Of a stretch of DNA of 64,000 nt, positions 17,043-25,439 are shown one piece after another. The stretch is taken from the NCBI GenBank assembly GCA_040220235.1, contig JAVJTO010000031.1. The stretch is one strand, 5' to 3'. The notes beneath the pieces are model-generated. The model made no database searches, was not told where the DNA came from, and worked only from the letters and a program-made list of their open reading frames with translations. The position numbers and the translations under genes were made by a program. Numbering within the stretch: position 1 is the stretch's first letter; every line of letters begins with the position of its first letter. The stretch comes from Coleofasciculus sp. B1-GNL1-01. Its GTDB lineage: Bacteria; Cyanobacteriota; Cyanobacteriia; Cyanobacteriales; Coleofasciculaceae.

Positions 17043-17885
17043 TCAAGCTGACACAGCCGCTAAACTGGCTGGGATTTTTCGCCCGACGGCGGCGGCGACG
17101 GGGTGTAAGCTGTGAACCAACTGCACCATATCGTCTAACGATAACGCTTGACGGGCATCCGATACGGATTTTTCCGGTTCGGGATGACACTCGATGATTA
17201 ATCCATCCGCACCTACTGCGACAGCCGCTTTCGCCAACGGGGAAATTAATTCCCGTTTGCCCGTGGCGTGGGAGGGATCTACAATCACAGGCAATGAAGT
17301 CATCTGCTTAAGTGCCACAACTGCTCCCAAATCTAAGACATTCCGGGTATAAGTATCGAAACTGCGAATCCCTCGTTCACACAGTACCACCTGAGAATTC
17401 CCATGACTGAGAATATATTCGGCTGCCATAACGAATTCTTCTAGAGTCGCCGCTAATCCCCGCTTCAGCAGAATCGGTTTATCAACTTGACCCAAGGCTT
17501 TGAGTAAATCAAAGTTTTGCATATTACGACTGCCTACCTGAAGCATATCAGCATGGGCAGCCACTAACTCGATTTGGGTAATGGACATGACTTCCGTCAC
17601 CACGGGAATCTGATGACGCGATCGCACCTGGGATAATATCTCTAGTCCCTCTACCCCTAAACCTTGGAACGAGTAAGGAGACGTGCGAGGTTTGAAAGCA
17701 CCGCCGCGTAACGCCTGAACCGGGGCGCGTTGCAGTTGAGTGGCGACGGTTTCCATCTGCGATCGACTCTCCACCGTACAAGGACCAGCAATTATCACCA
17801 GTTCCTCACCCCCGAAAGTGATATGATTCGACAGATGAACCAAAGTTGGGCGATCGGATTGGGTGGCAAGTGTAGCATTCACCAT
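17043..17885 (-). CDS. aroF: 3-deoxy-7-phosphoheptulonate (DAHP) synthase, type I-beta, catalytic barrel only
   Basis: IAGPCTVES, RGGAFKPRTSPYSFQG, GSRNMQN, LKRG, CERGIR, DPSH, ECHP, SDARQ; SD AAAGGA before ATG 17885; 280 aa. Confidence 0.96.
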   Translation of the reverse strand: MVNATLATQSDRPTLVHLSNHITFGGEELVIIAGPCTVESRSQMETVATQLQRAPVQALRGGAFKPRTSPYSFQGLGVEGLEILSQVRSRHQIPVVTEVMSITQIELVAAHADMLQVGSRNMQNFDLLKALGQVDKPILLKRGLAATLEEFVMAAEYILSHGNSQVVLCERGIRSFDTYTRNVLDLGAVVALKQMTSLPVIVDPSHATGKRELISPLAKAAVAVGADGLIIECHPEPEKSVSDARQALSLDDMVQLVHSLHPVAAAVGRKIPASLAAVSA

Positions 17886-17918
17886 CAGACTAATTCCTTT
17901 AAACAATGAGTGGACAAT

Positions 17919-17950
17919 AAAAAAACCCGGTTCCTTGTGGGTTCCGGGTT
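17919..17950 (-). terminator. Attenuator terminator 2 (aroF-proximal)
   Basis: mRNA AACCCGG-AACCCACAAGGAA-CCGGGUU UUUUU; lies 5' of the aroF start. Confidence 0.9.
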
Positions 17951-17975
17951 CTGAGAAAATTTAACGCAGCATCAC

Positions 17976-18044
17976 CTACCCGGAACTGCTTCCGAACCAA
18001 AAAAAGTAAAACAAGGTAAACCAGTGATTCAGGTAGGTTGTCAT
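17976..18044 (-). CDS. Leader peptide 2 MTTYLNHWFTLFYFFWFGSSSG
   Basis: SD AAGGAG (18051-18056) 6 nt before ATG; 9 of 22 codons Phe/Tyr/Trp; overlaps the antiterminator arm. Confidence 0.9.
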   Translation of the reverse strand: MTTYLNHWFTLFYFFWFGSSSG

Positions 18045-18056
18045 CAGATACTCCTT

Positions 18057-18092
18057 AAAAAACAAAAAGACCGCAGCTTTCGCTCTGCGGTC
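18057..18092 (-). terminator. Attenuator terminator 1 (distal)
   Basis: mRNA GACCGCAG-AGCGAAAG-CUGCGGUC followed by UUUUUGUUUUUU. Confidence 0.9.
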
Positions 18093-18121
18093 CACCGGGG
18101 AGGTTCCATGAGGAACTCTGC

Positions 18122-18178
18122 TCACCTCCGGTGAACCTCCGTAAACCAAAAATAAAAGTAGTTGTTGCAGTTGAGCAT
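18122..18178 (-). CDS. Leader peptide 1 MLNCNNYFYFWFTEVHRR
   Basis: Six consecutive aromatic codons (YFYFWF); 3' part carries the antiterminator arm; no clear SD. Confidence 0.85.
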   Translation of the reverse strand: MLNCNNYFYFWFTEVHRR

Positions 18179-18502
18179 AGCTGAGGGCTTTTTATGAAAC
18201 GTTAATTAGATGCCTGTTACTGGACACGATAGCAAGCTGTTGTGGCTAAGTCAATACCTGATCTGGATCAAGTTTCTGTTTTCCACGGGTGTGATCATGC
18301 ACCTGGGGGAGCTGGGGGAGCTGGGGAAGCTGGGGAAGCGGGGGGAGGATAAAGTTATAGCACTTCTCGATTGGGTGCAATACACCTTGGTAGAGACAGG
18401 GTGTGGGGTGTGGGGTGTGGGGTGTAGGGTGTAGTGCTTTCAAATGAGAACCGCTATATATCTTTGAATGCAACTTGGTATAAAGTACAGTCTATCCAAG
18501 CA

Positions 18503-18535
18503 AGATCCCCGACTTCTTTGAGGAGTCGGGGATCT
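18503..18535. repeat. Palindromic dispersed repeat AGATCCCCGACT...AGTCGGGGATCT
   Basis: 12-bp inverted arms; related copy at ~10643-10690. Confidence 0.8.
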
Positions 18536-18584: not shown

Positions 18585-19694
18585 ATGAACCTAAATTTAA
18601 CCGAACATACCGAAGGCAATGCCACATTTAAAATTGGTAATGCGTTTTATCGCCCAGGGACGCAAGTGGTGCGAGATTTAGGCATTTTAGCCGCAGCAAT
18701 TTATAAGTTTCAAATCGGTCACTTACGAGTAATTGATGCGATGAGTGGCTGTGGAGTGCGTTCTCTACGCTATAGTTTGGAAAGTCAAGCCGATTGGATC
18801 TGGGTGAATGAGGGAAATCCTGAGCTTAACCCGATTCTACAGCAAAATTTAGCAGGCGCGATCGCCAGCCATAAAGCTACCCTTACCCATCTCGACGTTA
18901 ATCAGGTCTTTTTTGAGTGCTATAACCGTCGAGATTACTACGATTTCATCGATGTGGACTGTTTCGGTTCCCCTACTCCCTATCTGGATACCAGCCTCTG
19001 GGCGCTGAAACTAGGGGGACTTCTTTATCTCACCAGTACCGATGGGCGTAAACTAACAGGTCATGCTTCAGAAAGCAGTTTGGGGATTTATGGGGCGTAT
19101 CCCCGCAACCATCCCGCCGCCCAGGAACAAGGATTGCGAGTGGTGATTGGTAAACTTCAGCAGCAAGCCATCGCCAAGGGTTTGGGGATTGAGCCGATTT
19201 TCTCCCTGTTTACGGGTCAAACTTACCGCCTAATGGTACGTTTGGTCAAAACCCAGCCGTTGACGCTGCAAAATTACGGATTTTTGGGTTATTGTCATCA
19301 CTGTGGTAATTATCAAACTGTGTCTTGGCGTCAGTTAGGGCGTGTGGTTTGTGCTTATGACCAAAAATCCCTGACCCTGAGTGGTCCGTTGTGGCTGGGA
19401 TTGTTGCATAATCAATCTTGGTTAAGACAGATGCAGGGATTAGCTCAAAAGTGGCACTGGTCAAAACGGGTACAACTCCTCAGCCTCATGGAAGCAGAAG
19501 CCGATTTCCCGCCCTACTTTTATACCTTGGCGGAAATTGGACGCCGAGGGCGTTTGGATATCCCAAAACGAGAGTATCTGATTCAGGCGTTGCGCGATCG
19601 CGGATATTTCGCCTGTGCCACTCATATTACACCGGGAGCGATTAAAACCAACGCCGATATTCACACTTGTATCGCTGTTGCGATAGACCGATAA
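18585..19694 (+). CDS. Trm1-like tRNA (guanine-N2)-dimethyltransferase
   Basis: AFYRP...RDL, IDAMSGCGVRSLRY SAM motif, DFIDVDCFGSP, TSTDG, CHHC, GPLWLG, TH...AIKTNA. Confidence 0.88.
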   Translation: MNLNLTEHTEGNATFKIGNAFYRPGTQVVRDLGILAAAIYKFQIGHLRVIDAMSGCGVRSLRYSLESQADWIWVNEGNPELNPILQQNLAGAIASHKATLTHLDVNQVFFECYNRRDYYDFIDVDCFGSPTPYLDTSLWALKLGGLLYLTSTDGRKLTGHASESSLGIYGAYPRNHPAAQEQGLRVVIGKLQQQAIAKGLGIEPIFSLFTGQTYRLMVRLVKTQPLTLQNYGFLGYCHHCGNYQTVSWRQLGRVVCAYDQKSLTLSGPLWLGLLHNQSWLRQMQGLAQKWHWSKRVQLLSLMEAEADFPPYFYTLAEIGRRGRLDIPKREYLIQALRDRGYFACATHITPGAIKTNADIHTCIAVAIDR

Positions 19695-19932: not shown

Positions 19933-20670
19933 ATGACTGCCATTTTAAAGGTTGGCGACCAAACCATCACGGCTGAAGAAGTAATTCCCCTGTTAGCCAA
20001 ATATCAATTACTCCCTCAGTTATTGCGAGAAATCATTATTGATCAAGCCATTGCCACCATAGATTGTACCGACGATGAAAAAAATGCTGCCTGCGAACAG
20101 TTCTATGCTAAGAATCAACTCACGACTGAGGAAGAACGTCAAGCGTGGCGCGATCGCCAAGACTTAAGCTTAGAACAAGTTGAAGAGTTAGCGGTTCGGG
20201 GACTGAAGCTGGAAAAATTTAAACAGGCGACCTGGGGACATAAGATTGAATCCTATTTCCTCAAGCGCAAAGGGCGGTTAGATCGGGTCATTTATTCCCT
20301 GATTCGGACAAAGGAGGCGGCGATTGCCCAAGAACTCTATTTTCGTATCCAAGAAGGAGAACAGTCATTTAATGAACTTGCCAGGGACTATTCCCAAGGA
20401 CCAGAGGCGCAAACAGGCGGATTAGTCGGACCCGTGGAACTGAGTACACCCCACCCCACCTTGGCGCAAATGTTAACTGTCAGCCAACCCGGTCAACTTC
20501 TACCCCCTACCCGCTTGGGGGACTGGTTTATCGTCATTCGTTTAGAAAAGTTTTTACCCGTGCAACTTGATGATGCCATGCGTCAGCGACTCCTAGATGA
20601 AATGTTTACCACCTGGTTAAAAGAACAACTGCGACAGCAGATATCCTTAGGTACACCTGTTCAATCCTAA
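19933..20670 (+). CDS. PpiC-type peptidylprolyl isomerase associated with T1SS
   Basis: YSLIR, ELYFRI, FNELARDYSQGPEAQTGGLVGP. Confidence 0.9.
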   Translation: MTAILKVGDQTITAEEVIPLLAKYQLLPQLLREIIIDQAIATIDCTDDEKNAACEQFYAKNQLTTEEERQAWRDRQDLSLEQVEELAVRGLKLEKFKQATWGHKIESYFLKRKGRLDRVIYSLIRTKEAAIAQELYFRIQEGEQSFNELARDYSQGPEAQTGGLVGPVELSTPHPTLAQMLTVSQPGQLLPPTRLGDWFIVIRLEKFLPVQLDDAMRQRLLDEMFTTWLKEQLRQQISLGTPVQS

Positions 20671-20727
20671 ACCCTGTCAAGACGTGCCATGCTACGTCTC
20701 TACAATGCTATTCCCTGAGGCTGCCCC

Positions 20728-23700
20728 ATGACCTACACAAAGACAACAATTCAGGATTTTCTGGCAGATATCGTTCCCTTCAATCAACTTGACGCCTCGA
20801 CCCTAACCAAGTTGGCGGAAAAAAGTCAACTGCTGCGCTATCGTATGGGTCAACCGATCCTGATGCGAGAAAAAATGCCCTCTCAGATCTCGATTCTCTA
20901 TGAGGGAAAGGCGCGGCTTTTGAGTTACGAACAAACCACCCAAAAACCCGTCACCCTGGACTTGCTGAAACCGGGCTCAATTCTGGGTTGGGTGAGTCTG
21001 ATGCGGGGTATCCCTTGTGAAACAGCGATCGCATCGACGGAATCAGTCTGCTTAACCATCCCCACGGGTCAGTTTCTGGCGCTGATGGCACAGGAACCTA
21101 CCGCTACCGCCGCGTTCCAAAACCAGTGCAGTGTCATCGAAGCCTTTGAGTTAATTGGCGCGGAATTGGTACGCCAAGCCAGTGGGATTATGAATCTCAA
21201 AGAACTGGCGACAAACGCTTACCCAGATGCCGAGGTGCGTTACCTCTATCCCATGACTGACGCCACTGAACTCTTGACCCCTGATCGGGTGTGGTTCGTC
21301 AGTGGTGGGAGTGTCGTTAAAGATTTTCCCCTAGGAAGTCGGCTGACGCCAGAGGTGATTTCTCAAGGGTTAGACATCCAAGGATCTACCCCCGCCCGGA
21401 TTATCGGGTTTCGTGAATCGGATTTAGTCGGGGAAGCTGAAACCGAACTCCCGACTACTCCGGTGACGGTAGTTGGTGAACCAACCCCCCTAACCACCGA
21501 CGATGACCCCTGGCTGGATGATGGCGATGGCGACAATAGCATTCCCTATGCCTCCGATAAACTGCTAGAAGCCACAGAGGATGAAGATCAAACCGCTGAC
21601 TCCCAGCGCAAATATCCCCATGTCCGAGGGAAGGGACTCCTCGATGGTACCGTCGCCTGTTTCCAAATGCTGAGTAAGTATTTAGAAATGCCCTTCCGCC
21701 GCGATGTGATTCGTCGGGTACTCAATGAACAGATGCAGCGCACTGGAGGGTTGTCGTTACCCCTGTGTGGGGCGGTAGCTGATTTAATCGGCTTACACGC
21801 CCAATTGGTAAATGTACCGCCCCAATCAATCAACCGCCTGCAAACCCCCGCCCTGGTTCCTTGGCATGAAGGTTTTGCCGTTCTCTATGAAGCCAAGCCA
21901 CGAGAATTAGTACTGGGTGTGCCAGAACTGGGGATTGTCCGCCGTAAACCTGCTGATTTACTGGATAGTTTACCGAGAAGCGAAGACGGGCAGTCACCGG
22001 AAGCGATCCCGGTGTTGTTGGTACAACGGACGAAACACACACCGAAGCAGCGGTTTGGCTTGCAATGGTTTCTCCCCTCGCTGGTGCGCTACCGTCGCGT
22101 TTTAATCTTGGTGTTTATCGCCTCGTTTTTTGTGCAGCTATTCGGACTGGCGAATCCGTTGATGATCCAGGTGATTATCGATAAGGTGATTGTACAGAAC
22201 AGTATTGATACGCTGCATGTGCTGGGCTTGTTCCTGGTGATCATTGCCGTTTTTGAGGCATTATTAACCAGTTTCCGGACGTATCTATTTGTGGATACGA
22301 CGAACCGGATTGACATGCATCTGGGGTCGGAGATTATTGACCACTTAGTCCGCTTACCGTTGCGGTATTTTGAACGGCGTCCAGTAGGGGAACTGGCAAG
22401 TCGAATTAATGAGTTGGAAAATATTCGTCAGTTTCTCACGGGAACGGCGTTGACGGTGGTGTTAGATGCGGTGTTTTCCGTGTTGTACATCGTGGTCATG
22501 TTTATTTATAGCTGGGTGCTAACAATTGTCTCGTTGGGGATTATTCCCCTGTTTGTGTTGTTAACCGTAATTGTTTCACCGATTGTCCGTCGCCAACTGC
22601 GAACCAAAGCAGAACGGAACGCCCAGACTCAATCCTATTTAGTGGAAGTCATGTCCGGGATTCAAACCGTCAAAGCGCAAAACATCGAATTGCGATCGCG
22701 CTGGCAATGGCAGGAACGCTATGCCCGGTATGTATCGGCAGGGTTTAAGACGGTGCTAACGTCTACAACGGCGGGTTCAATGAGTAATTTCTTGAATAAA
22801 CTCTCCGCTTTGTTAGTGCTATGGGTGGGTGCTTATCTGGTTTTAGATGGGCAGTTAACCTTGGGGCAATTAATCGCCTTCCGAATTATTTCCGGCTATG
22901 TTACCAGTCCCCTACTCCGATTAGCCCAACTGTGGCAGAATTTCCAAGAAACGGCGCTATCCTTAGAACGGTTAAGTGATATCGTGGATAGCCCCCAAGA
23001 AGCGGATGAGGCAGATCGCTTAAATATTCCCATGCCTGCGATTAAAGGGGAAGTGGAGTATGAAAATCTCTCCTTCCGCTTTGGCACCAGTGGTCCTTGG
23101 CAATTAACCAATATTAACCTGCATTTTCCGGCTGGCGTATTTGTCGGGATTGTCGGTCAAAGTGGTTCCGGTAAGAGTACATTAATGAAACTGTTACCCC
23201 GCCTCTATGATGTCGATTCAGGCAGAATTTTAATCGACAACTACGATATCTCCAAAGTTGAACTCTATTCCCTGCGTCGTCAGGTAGGGATTGTACCCCA
23301 AGATAGTCTGCTGTTTGATGGTACGGTACAAGATAATATTGCTCTGACCAATCCCGATGCTAGCGCCGAGGAAATCATTGAAGCCGCTAAAGTCGCCGCC
23401 GCTCATGAGTTTATCATGGGGTTGTCCAGTGGTTACAATACAAGAGTCGGGGAGCGAGGATCATCCCTATCCGGGGGACAACGCCAGCGGATTGCCATTG
23501 CCCGCACGGTACTACAAAATCCGCGACTCTTAATCTTGGATGAAGCCACCAGCGCCCTTGACTATGACACCGAACGGCAAGTTTGTTTAAATCTAATTGA
23601 AGCCTTCAAAGGACGCACTGTCTTTTTCATTACCCACCGTTTAAGTACCATTCGTAACAGCGACGTCATTTTAATGATGGATAAAGGATCAGTCGTTGAA

Positions 23701-23778
23701 CAAGGAACCCATGACGAACTGATGGCACTGCAAGGGCGCTACTACTGCCTCTATCAACAGCAAGACGCTCAACTTTAA
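20728..23778 (+). CDS. Type I secretion ABC transporter (HlyB-like) with cNMP-binding and C39-like domains
   Basis: N-terminal cNMP-binding fold, C39-like region, ABC membrane domain, GQSGSGKS, LSGGQRQR, ILDEATSALD. Confidence 0.95.
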   Translation: MTYTKTTIQDFLADIVPFNQLDASTLTKLAEKSQLLRYRMGQPILMREKMPSQISILYEGKARLLSYEQTTQKPVTLDLLKPGSILGWVSLMRGIPCETAIASTESVCLTIPTGQFLALMAQEPTATAAFQNQCSVIEAFELIGAELVRQASGIMNLKELATNAYPDAEVRYLYPMTDATELLTPDRVWFVSGGSVVKDFPLGSRLTPEVISQGLDIQGSTPARIIGFRESDLVGEAETELPTTPVTVVGEPTPLTTDDDPWLDDGDGDNSIPYASDKLLEATEDEDQTADSQRKYPHVRGKGLLDGTVACFQMLSKYLEMPFRRDVIRRVLNEQMQRTGGLSLPLCGAVADLIGLHAQLVNVPPQSINRLQTPALVPWHEGFAVLYEAKPRELVLGVPELGIVRRKPADLLDSLPRSEDGQSPEAIPVLLVQRTKHTPKQRFGLQWFLPSLVRYRRVLILVFIASFFVQLFGLANPLMIQVIIDKVIVQNSIDTLHVLGLFLVIIAVFEALLTSFRTYLFVDTTNRIDMHLGSEIIDHLVRLPLRYFERRPVGELASRINELENIRQFLTGTALTVVLDAVFSVLYIVVMFIYSWVLTIVSLGIIPLFVLLTVIVSPIVRRQLRTKAERNAQTQSYLVEVMSGIQTVKAQNIELRSRWQWQERYARYVSAGFKTVLTSTTAGSMSNFLNKLSALLVLWVGAYLVLDGQLTLGQLIAFRIISGYVTSPLLRLAQLWQNFQETALSLERLSDIVDSPQEADEADRLNIPMPAIKGEVEYENLSFRFGTSGPWQLTNINLHFPAGVFVGIVGQSGSGKSTLMKLLPRLYDVDSGRILIDNYDISKVELYSLRRQVGIVPQDSLLFDGTVQDNIALTNPDASAEEIIEAAKVAAAHEFIMGLSSGYNTRVGERGSSLSGGQRQRIAIARTVLQNPRLLILDEATSALDYDTERQVCLNLIEAFKGRTVFFITHRLSTIRNSDVILMMDKGSVVEQGTHDELMALQGRYYCLYQQQDAQL

Positions 23779-23897
23779 GGTATTTGTCTTATGTCCTTTG
23801 TTTCTTTTCAAGACCTCAATATGACGAAATTGGTTTGAGAGGAAACAGGGACGAATGACCAATGACGAATGACCAATGACGAAGGACTAATACTACC

Positions 23898-25439
23898 ATG
23901 AATCAACGCAACGGATCATCCAGCCAACCCCTTGCCACGCGATCGCCCGCCCAGTCAGTGAAAACTGCAACCAAAGCCGGAGCTACTCGGCGGACAACGC
24001 ACCCTCCGGAATTTGATCAACCCGTTATCCTGCAACAATCTCCCCTGTGGCCCCGCATGATTGTTGTGGCGTTGATTGGGGTGACAACCCTCAGCGTCGG
24101 GTGGGCGTGTTTGGCGAAAATTGAAGAAGCCATTCCCGCCCAAGGCAAACTCGAACCCAAAGCCGCCGTCAAAGAAGTCCAAGCCCCTCAAGGGGGGGTG
24201 GTTAAATCAGTGGAGATTGAAGAAGGCGATCGGGTTGAAAAAGGGGATACCCTGCTCACCTTTGACCAAACAGCGGCTCAAGCTCAATTTAAATCCCTCC
24301 AGCAAATTCGCGCCGCTTTAATCCAAGAAAATCAATTTTATCAGGCTCAGATGACGGGCAAAGCTGTTTCCATTGACCCCGAAAATCTACCGGAGAAACT
24401 CCCCCCTCAAATTGCCTCACTCACCAAAAATCGGGCGGCTTTAGTGGCAGAAAAGAACTTCTATCAAGCTCAACTCACCGGAGATCCCACGGGTCTAACC
24501 TTGGCACAACGGCAACGCTTACAGGCAAGCCAAAACGAGTATAACTCTCGCGTTGCTGCTGCCGAGTTAGAAGTCGAACAACTCAATCGCCAACTGACTC
24601 AAACCCAAATCCAACTTGCCGATGCTGAACAAGTATTGCAGTTTAACCGACAAATTACTGAGCGCCTAGAGAAGCTGTGGCGAGAGGGCGCATTTGGCGA
24701 ACTCCAATATCTACGTCAGAAACAAGACACCGACAGTAGCGCCGCCGAGGTAGCCCGTCTCCAGAAAGAACAGGAACGGTTAGAGAAAGCGATTCAGCAA
24801 GCCCAGGAACGCAAACAAAACACCATGGCGCTCTCAGAAGAAGAACTGCGAACCCAAATTGCCCAAAACGAACAACGGATCGCCGAAATTGACAGCCAAC
24901 TCACCAAAATTATTGTTGAAAACCAAAAACGTCTCCAAGAAATCGAGAGCCAACTCAGCCAAATCCAGGTAACGCTAACCAATCAGGAATTACAGGCACC
25001 TGAAGGCGGCATCGTGTTTGACCTGCAAGCCAGTCCTGAATTTGTGGCAAACACCAGTGAGCCTGTTGTGAAAATTGTCCCGAATGACACACTGATTGCC
25101 AAAGTTTATATCACCAACCAGGACATTGGTTTTGTCAACGAAGGAATGCCCGTAGATGTTCGAGTTGATTCCTTCCCCTACAGCGAATTTGGCGATGTCA
25201 AAGGCGAGTTAGTCCAAATTGGGTCGGATGCTTTACCGCCTAATGAGGTTTACCCGTTCTATCGTTTCCCCGCCGAAATTCGCATGAATCGACAAACCAT
25301 ATCGGTCAACGGCAAAGAAGTTCCCTTACAATCGGGGATGTCGATCAGCGCCAATATTAAAGTCCGCAAGCGTCCGGTCATTAGTATTTTCAGTGACCTA
25401 TTTATGCGGAAAATTGACAGTCTCAAAACGGTACGGTAG
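23898..25439 (+). CDS. HlyD-family membrane fusion protein
   Basis: Single TM, VQAPQGGVV..V.EGDRV.KG, long coiled coil, DSFPYSEFG, LQSGM. Confidence 0.95.
   Translation: MNQRNGSSSQPLATRSPAQSVKTATKAGATRRTTHPPEFDQPVILQQSPLWPRMIVVALIGVTTLSVGWACLAKIEEAIPAQGKLEPKAAVKEVQAPQGGVVKSVEIEEGDRVEKGDTLLTFDQTAAQAQFKSLQQIRAALIQENQFYQAQMTGKAVSIDPENLPEKLPPQIASLTKNRAALVAEKNFYQAQLTGDPTGLTLAQRQRLQASQNEYNSRVAAAELEVEQLNRQLTQTQIQLADAEQVLQFNRQITERLEKLWREGAFGELQYLRQKQDTDSSAAEVARLQKEQERLEKAIQQAQERKQNTMALSEEELRTQIAQNEQRIAEIDSQLTKIIVENQKRLQEIESQLSQIQVTLTNQELQAPEGGIVFDLQASPEFVANTSEPVVKIVPNDTLIAKVYITNQDIGFVNEGMPVDVRVDSFPYSEFGDVKGELVQIGSDALPPNEVYPFYRFPAEIRMNRQTISVNGKEVPLQSGMSISANIKVRKRPVISIFSDLFMRKIDSLKTVR

Follow-up and report, generated by a model that had tools for sequence, protein, structure and literature searches.

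The window analysed here, a stretch of 64,000 nucleotides from the genome of Coleofasciculus sp. B1-GNL1-01, carries on its minus strand the gene of a short type I-beta DAHP synthase (aroF). Between a putative promoter and this gene lie two units, each consisting of a short reading frame with a run of aromatic codons and of two alternative predicted RNA helices:

18226..18254, minus strand: predicted promoter of the sigma-70/SigA type (-35 element, 17 nt, extended -10; 9/12, TG present)
18122..18178, minus strand: leader peptide 1 reading frame, 18 aa, no Shine-Dalgarno site, aromatic run YFYFWF at 18160-18143
18089..18137, minus strand: candidate antiterminator 1, in which 18137-18128 (end of leader 1) pairs with 18098-18089
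18057..18093, minus strand: predicted intrinsic terminator 1, hairpin 18093-18068 with a 9-bp stem, then U5GU6
18051..18056, minus strand: Shine-Dalgarno-like hexamer of leader 2, by sequence inspection
17976..18044, minus strand: leader peptide 2 reading frame, 22 aa, aromatic run FYFFWF at 18011-17994
17974..18038, minus strand: candidate unit 2 start-region helix, 18038-18030 with 17982-17974, present in the minimum free energy fold
17941..17986, minus strand: candidate antiterminator 2, in which 17986-17978 pairs with 17949-17941 in the 5' arm of terminator 2
17919..17950, minus strand: predicted intrinsic terminator 2, hairpin 17950-17924 with a 9-nt loop, then U7
17895..17900, minus strand: Shine-Dalgarno-like site of aroF, outside terminator 2
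17043..17885, minus strand: aroF, short type I-beta DAHP synthase, 280 aa, PF00793, ATG at 17885, a stand-alone gene

The first-pass annotation had described the order leader 1, hairpin and U-tract, Shine-Dalgarno sequence, leader 2, hairpin and U7, Shine-Dalgarno sequence and aroF, and all of these are present as located above. It had also read six successive aromatic codons ending in FWF in both leaders, Phe, Tyr and Trp all being included, and a complementarity of the 3' segment of each leader to the 5' arm of its own terminator; both observations hold, the latter as the two antiterminator pairings. Leader 2 carries Y4, W8 and F9 in addition to its run of six. The predicted transcription start is at about 18219, while the two terminators (about -15.5 and -13.3 kcal/mol) have predicted 3' ends at about 18060 and 17919, respectively. 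Terminator 1 was found by a consensus scan and terminator 2 was missed by it, because its 9-nt loop exceeds the limit of the scan. Antiterminator 1, which encloses a weak inner hairpin (18116-18103), occupies the 5' base of terminator 1. The leader region as a whole folds better than 100 of 100 shuffled sequences (z = -2.65). Among 109,259 short start-to-stop frames in the genome 102 have at least five aromatic codons in six; eight of these are accompanied by a terminator-like hairpin, and only leaders 1 and 2 also precede a long reading frame on the same strand. The arrangement of leaders and hairpins therefore exceeds chance expectation, and the whole-genome scan found no such leader before any other gene of this genome.

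Upstream of the promoter, positions 18300-18425 and 18500-18535 of the window contain short C-rich tandem repeats and an inverted repeat, which attract many repeat-derived contigs from RNA runs. Further on, the plus strand encodes a TRM1-like tRNA methyltransferase (18585-19694, below the NCBIfam cut-offs), divergent from aroF and found next to it only in five close relatives. It is followed at 19933-25439 (plus strand) by consecutive genes for a PpiC-like protein, an ABC-transporter-like protein of 1016 aa and an HlyD-like protein of 513 aa, which together resemble a type I secretion cluster; the first of these assignments comes from a profile match and the other two were read from the translations.

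The product of aroF scores over the cut-offs of TIGR01361 and PRK08673, covers profile positions 77-336 of 338 and has its best PDB match in 1zco, a bare-barrel enzyme of 262 aa. Domain searches likewise describe it as a catalytic barrel without an N-terminal ACT-like or chorismate mutase domain. Type I-beta DAHP synthases of the bare-barrel kind are not known to be inhibited by Phe, Tyr or Trp, and because the regulatory domain is missing the short enzyme probably escapes feedback inhibition. A second DAHP synthase of the same genome, 352 aa long and encoded on contig C77, has approximately 70 additional N-terminal residues in comparison with the short form. The short form was present in 52 of 301 sampled cyanobacterial genomes (E <= 1e-100), the relatives at 95-97% identity being records titled Coleofasciculus, and among 41 relatives it was accompanied by a long copy in all but two incomplete genomes. 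Aromatic residues make up 3.6% of the short enzyme (121 orthologues) versus 8.1% of the long reading frames of the genome, and Trp occurs in just eight of the 121, while the four long paralogues counted have two to six. Such an aromatic-poor enzyme is to be expected, because the gene would be made during aromatic shortage. Outside close relatives, the short aroF loci have no downstream gene on the same strand in common, and their flanks gave no sign of a conserved operon or of an association with scytonemin genes. In 44 of 123 loci, for the most part Nostoc-like records, the aroF promoter has as its neighbour a conserved divergent reading frame of about 165 aa with Cys pairs, which lies approximately 0.6-1.9 kb upstream of aroF on the opposite strand (e.g. 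L040, L043, L052).

The first-pass annotation had proposed aligning the regions upstream of short aroF orthologues; in the alignments made here the aromatic reading frames are conserved and the stems covary. The set comprised 123 distinct short-form loci, of which 118, the window included, have at least 450 bases upstream. Both units precede aroF in 112 of these 118 loci, 108 having been recognized by pattern and four more (L024, L025, L046 and L097) by inspection; these counts are not independent, because the loci are related and were chosen as top hits. The six others are of three kinds: L059 and L061 keep leader 1 as well as a second aromatic run and hairpin, the stop of leader 2 having been lost; L044, L054 and L136 have only unit 2 before aroF; and in L117 leader 2 is interrupted by a 1.7-kb insertion. 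Twelve further loci stood outside the alignments (one duplicates L093), nine with both units and three, by scan, with unit 1 only. Unit 1 stands alone before aroF in L184, L190 and L192. Since each unit also occurs alone before aroF, each can be regarded as a module, and these natural single-unit loci permit a comparison of one switch with two. In several genomes unit 1 and unit 2 can be found with one and the same degenerate pattern, which has no match among the controls; this makes an origin of the two units by duplication plausible on grounds of sequence.

Several loci show rearrangements. In L059 and L061, some 200-60 bases before aroF, the stop of leader 2 is out of frame and the reading frame continues through terminator 2 to the U-tract. 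In L183 (G179:C1:6186400-6188900) leader 2 is split by a 1.7-kb insertion with a 419-aa reading frame, which resembles a TnpB of the IS605 family, and unit 1 is intact upstream. In L161 (G084:C49, approximately 74014-74167) a deletion has fused the 5' arm of terminator 1 to the interior of aroF, leaving a broken aroF remnant behind an intact leader 1.

In the sampled set the element is found only before the short, regulator-less aroF isozyme. None of 24 long-form paralogues had a leader of this kind within 465-600 bases upstream. A covariance model of unit 1 gave matches in 23 of 141 genomes, one in each, although several of these 23 genomes or their kin had contributed to the model; 22 of the matches immediately precede a short aroF, and the remaining one precedes a deleted aroF remnant. 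A pattern match in genome G232 was rejected as a chance match, there being no leader reading frame at that place. Searches for known families of either leader peptide in Pfam and NCBIfam returned none, and in Rfam the RNA element had no match, the single hit being a chance-level one outside the element (E 2.6).

Aromatic content alone would be circular as evidence of coding, because the units were located by patterns requiring aromatic runs, but the frame around the runs is also maintained. Of 114 copies of leader 1, 113 start with an in-frame ATG, 93 encode 18 residues and 105 end eight codons past the Trp anchor. For leader 2 a start codon is present in 116 of 118 loci, and in 101 of 111 the stop lies seven codons past Trp. 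The four codons that precede Trp in leader 1 are each aromatic in 107-112 of 114 loci, and these positions vary synonymously (TAC/TAT) and by exchange of Phe, Tyr and Trp, in accordance with substitutions within the aromatic runs generally, which are mostly among these three. Nearly all loci have 5-11 Phe, Tyr or Trp codons per leader, and all three amino acids are represented in 113 of 114 copies of leader 1 and 114 of 116 of leader 2. A Shine-Dalgarno-like site precedes leader 1 in three of 114 loci and leader 2 in 46 of 116. A promoter pattern similar to that of the window was seen before 71 of 114 leader 1 orthologues, in 61 of them at 65-81 nt from the ATG, a count made without a chance control.

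The aromatic run is also constrained at the nucleotide level, because leader 1 uses TTT almost without exception for its core Phe codons (100:1 and 98:0, compared with 73% TTT in the genome and 28% in aroF genes). This could reflect slow wobble decoding or a T-rich pause signal. It also bears on an alternative according to which the switches respond less to amino-acid supply than to how fast ribosomes move in general, or to how far the tRNAs reading UNN codons are modified. MiaA and MiaB modify these tRNAs at A37 in an iron-dependent manner; every Phe, Tyr and Trp codon starts with U, and the core Phe codons are nearly always the wobble-read TTT. PMC13434334 reportedly links MiaA to Trp attenuation in Pseudomonas. 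On the other hand, the remaining UNN codons (Leu, Ser, Cys) are rare in the runs, and the regulated gene makes exactly Phe, Tyr and Trp. Modification would in any case be an added input and not a different machine, and we consider it very unlikely that it is what the switches mainly sense.

Covariation was examined in two alignments of 58 hand-picked diverse sequences. The main helix of antiterminator 1 is paired in 96% of cells with two-sided changes in five of ten pairs (its inner hairpin in 71% of cells), terminator 1 in 99% with such changes in two of nine pairs, antiterminator 2 in 94% with four of nine and terminator 2 in 87% with six of ten. Within each unit antiterminator and terminator share columns and are thus mutually exclusive. 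All four helices exceed 500 of 500 column shuffles in percentage paired and in covariation score, and slid registers pair in 10-61%, below the true register for all four; the number of pairs with two-sided changes was equalled by 1-56 of 500 shuffles, and relatedness inflates covariation tests. The start-region helix of unit 2 has a mean energy of -9.9 kcal/mol for cognate strands versus -7.8 for non-cognate and -6.2 for shuffled ones, 18 of 61 loci being in the best 5%. There is thus partial support for this modelled helix, which would mask the start of leader 2 and compete with the antiterminator. The corresponding helix between start and post-stop region in unit 1 was tried and rejected, being near background (8 of 66 ranked within the best 5%; the median rank was 0.45).

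The same alignments speak to the possibility that the leaders are arrest peptides, in which a nascent YFYFW-like sequence together with a small molecule in the exit tunnel would stall the ribosome in the manner of TnaC, tRNA charging playing no part. The order Y-F-Y-F-W is indeed more fixed than a count of codons alone would need. However, the residues past Trp follow RNA pairing: changes in the VHR segment are matched by changes in the 3' strand. In L134, L186 and L187 an early stop directly before or inside the antiterminator strand removes this segment partly or wholly while the RNA helices stay. Stalling on excess amino acid would moreover induce a biosynthetic gene when its product is abundant. 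Arrest peptides are for these reasons an extremely improbable explanation of the leaders.

How the position of the ribosome could decide between the helices was modelled by masking the RNA under the ribosome codon by codon and asking if the base of the terminator 5' arm pairs upstream before the 3' arm is made (pre-emption). With a 10-nt footprint, pre-emption in E. coli trpL was 1.0 for a ribosome on the Trp codons, 0.05 for one on the stop and 0.01 for naked RNA, the corresponding values for pheL being 0.67, 0.11 and 0.21; both controls were released at the stop codon under this footprint and not under one of 7 nt. In unit 1 of the window pre-emption is 1.0 through Trp and falls one or two codons later with both footprints, and in unit 2 it falls two or three codons past Trp. 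In a survey of every second locus (61 of 122, 7-nt footprint) it was above 0.5 in 53 of 56 copies of unit 1 and 53 of 54 of unit 2 when the last Trp codon was occupied; further on the medians were 0.00-0.4 and 0.04-0.11, respectively. At the stop it exceeded 0.5 in 21 of 56 copies of unit 1, where the terminator base was still paired upstream, and in none of 54 of unit 2. The model therefore places the switch point at the end of the aromatic runs. In untranslated RNA the antiterminator forms in 54 of 56 copies of unit 1 and 39 of 54 of unit 2 (pre-emption for the window 1.00 and 0.23), so termination should depend on timely arrival of a ribosome. Neither the folding model nor the duplex test detected a 1:2 protector or pause hairpin in unit 1, and since this classical helix is missing, unit 1 should read through when untranslated.

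Equilibrium folding by itself does not separate the states of unit 1: terminator 1 of the window wins at every ribosome position, with 0.90-0.99 on Trp, and trpL behaves alike. Because the terminator wins at equilibrium, switching would have to be kinetic. This strength of the terminators could also be attributed to their being constitutive dampers, with the hairpins acting post-transcriptionally on stability, processing or aroF translation, or with short RNAs acting in trans; canonical terminators, according to passages of PMC12642595, end only 22% of Synechococcus transcription units. Yet the Shine-Dalgarno-like site of aroF lies outside terminator 2, dampers would have no need for a covarying antiterminator 9-11 nt past the Trp codon, and the element is seen only before short aroF. 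We regard explanations of this type as hardly probable at all. Transcript ends or levels cannot be read from the RNA runs: 11 contain part of the stretch, and in the four examined the contigs were of flat depth and up to 78 kb long, possibly DNA. In one run leader 1 is covered by a piece of its own (18029-18170) with a depth of 547 versus 421-428 beside it; this may be a strain variant and is given no weight here.

From all these results we consider it highly probable, on the strength of sequence comparison and modelling, that two ribosome-mediated transcription attenuators in series control the short aroF, which would most likely be switched on when Phe, Tyr or Trp run short. Transcription would start at approximately 18219 and a ribosome would translate leader 1. 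With ample charged tRNA-Phe, -Tyr and -Trp it would pass the aromatic codons and cover the antiterminator strand, which begins about 9 nt past the Trp codon, so that terminator 1 would form and an RNA of about 160 nt be released. A ribosome stalled on the aromatic run would leave this strand free to pair with the terminator 1 base while the 3' arm has yet to be transcribed, and polymerase would read through. Leader 2 would repeat the test, ending either in release of an RNA of about 300 nt or in read-through into aroF. As both switches would have to be open, leak-through would multiply, and two switches could give a steeper response; all three aromatic amino acids would presumably be sensed, although the aroR leader of C. 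glutamicum has a Tyr codon and gives no response to Tyr (PMC11802643). Because unit 1 has neither a pause hairpin nor a Shine-Dalgarno site, polymerase would have to await the ribosome by other means. Pausing at T-tracts of the NusG type is known in Bacillus.

The first-pass annotation had assigned the element to the trp/pheA/his type of attenuation. Ribosome-mediated tandem attenuation is supported by conservation of the reading frames, covariation, position of the switch and restriction to the short isozyme, and the classical features are present: a leader reading frame rich in codons for the end products, a predicted intrinsic terminator, a mutually exclusive antiterminator and, in the model, a switch set by ribosome position. 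What does not hold is the four-segment trp/pheA subtype, in which a 1:2 hairpin makes untranslated RNA terminate; unit 1 is without it and the helix of unit 2 is partly supported. A fuller picture, in which a two-stage AND gate pools the supply of Phe, Tyr and Trp, leader-peptide attenuation works in a phylum without Rho, the near-invariant TTT-rich run doubles as pause signal and the isozymes split control between allostery and ribosome sensing, is offered as a tentative one, and we think it somewhat doubtful as a whole.

A widespread and covarying leader attenuator would make it possible to examine directly if ribosomes and RNA polymerase move in step in cyanobacteria and, should that fuller picture be true, the element would be a natural reporter of transcription-translation coupling in this phylum. 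The element also points to a possible restraint on a DAHP synthase without feedback domain, which is relevant to aromatic flux and its engineering. According to a 2016 comparative paper (PMC4833913) reliable data on attenuation in cyanobacteria are lacking, and a 2025 termination map (PMC12642595) states that cyanobacteria lack Rho, that most of their transcription units end by other means and that their polymerase terminates at hairpin-plus-U-tract sites. In PMC7858274 nothing on coupling in cyanobacteria appears at the 12 of 22 matching places that were read, and passages of PMC7997468 and PMC1173090 do not mention the element. Our search of the open literature found no report of such an element in cyanobacteria, which agrees with the earlier remark that no characterised classical or tandem three-amino-acid attenuator was known there, though subscription journals, supplements or tables of attenuator or RNA-motif surveys may list one. 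The parts for which we found no report are the occurrence in this phylum, the arrangement in tandem and the combination of three amino acids; attenuation as such is already known for a DAHP synthase gene of C. glutamicum.

The primary paper on that aroR-aroF attenuator is reportedly the one by Neshat et al. from 2014. As described in parts of PMC11802643 and PMC4046766, a leader with Phe-Tyr-Phe attenuates the C. glutamicum DAHP synthase gene and responds to Phe and not to Tyr. The likeness lies in an aromatic-codon leader before a DAHP synthase gene, stalling in which raises transcription there, but C. glutamicum has a single leader and a feedback-inhibited enzyme, whereas here there are two leaders, an enzyme without regulatory domain and another phylum. 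The uORFC-13-1 motif, according to passages of PMC8632094, consists of a predicted reading frame, whose Phe run is rich in U, and of a terminator, both upstream of Acholeplasma aroF; compared by its description, it differs in being a single unit with Phe only, a prediction with 24 representatives from Acholeplasma and environmental DNA. Tandem attenuators are known from Salmonella mgtCBR, where mgtM and mgtP respond additively to ATP and proline signals and are termed a singular example in the abstract of PMC3641672. There too two short reading frames share one leader, each within an attenuator; the two signals differ, however, while here the two units share one set of three amino acids and are each equipped with a separate predicted intrinsic terminator. 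With E. coli trpL and pheL the element shares a run of cognate codons, an antiterminator pre-empting an intrinsic terminator and a kinetic switch. These are single units for one amino acid, in which the 1:2 helix makes untranslated RNA terminate (pre-emption 0.01 and 0.21, compared with 1.00 in unit 1) and, in the model, release comes only at the stop codon, whereas the cyanobacterial element would flip one to three codons past the aromatic run.
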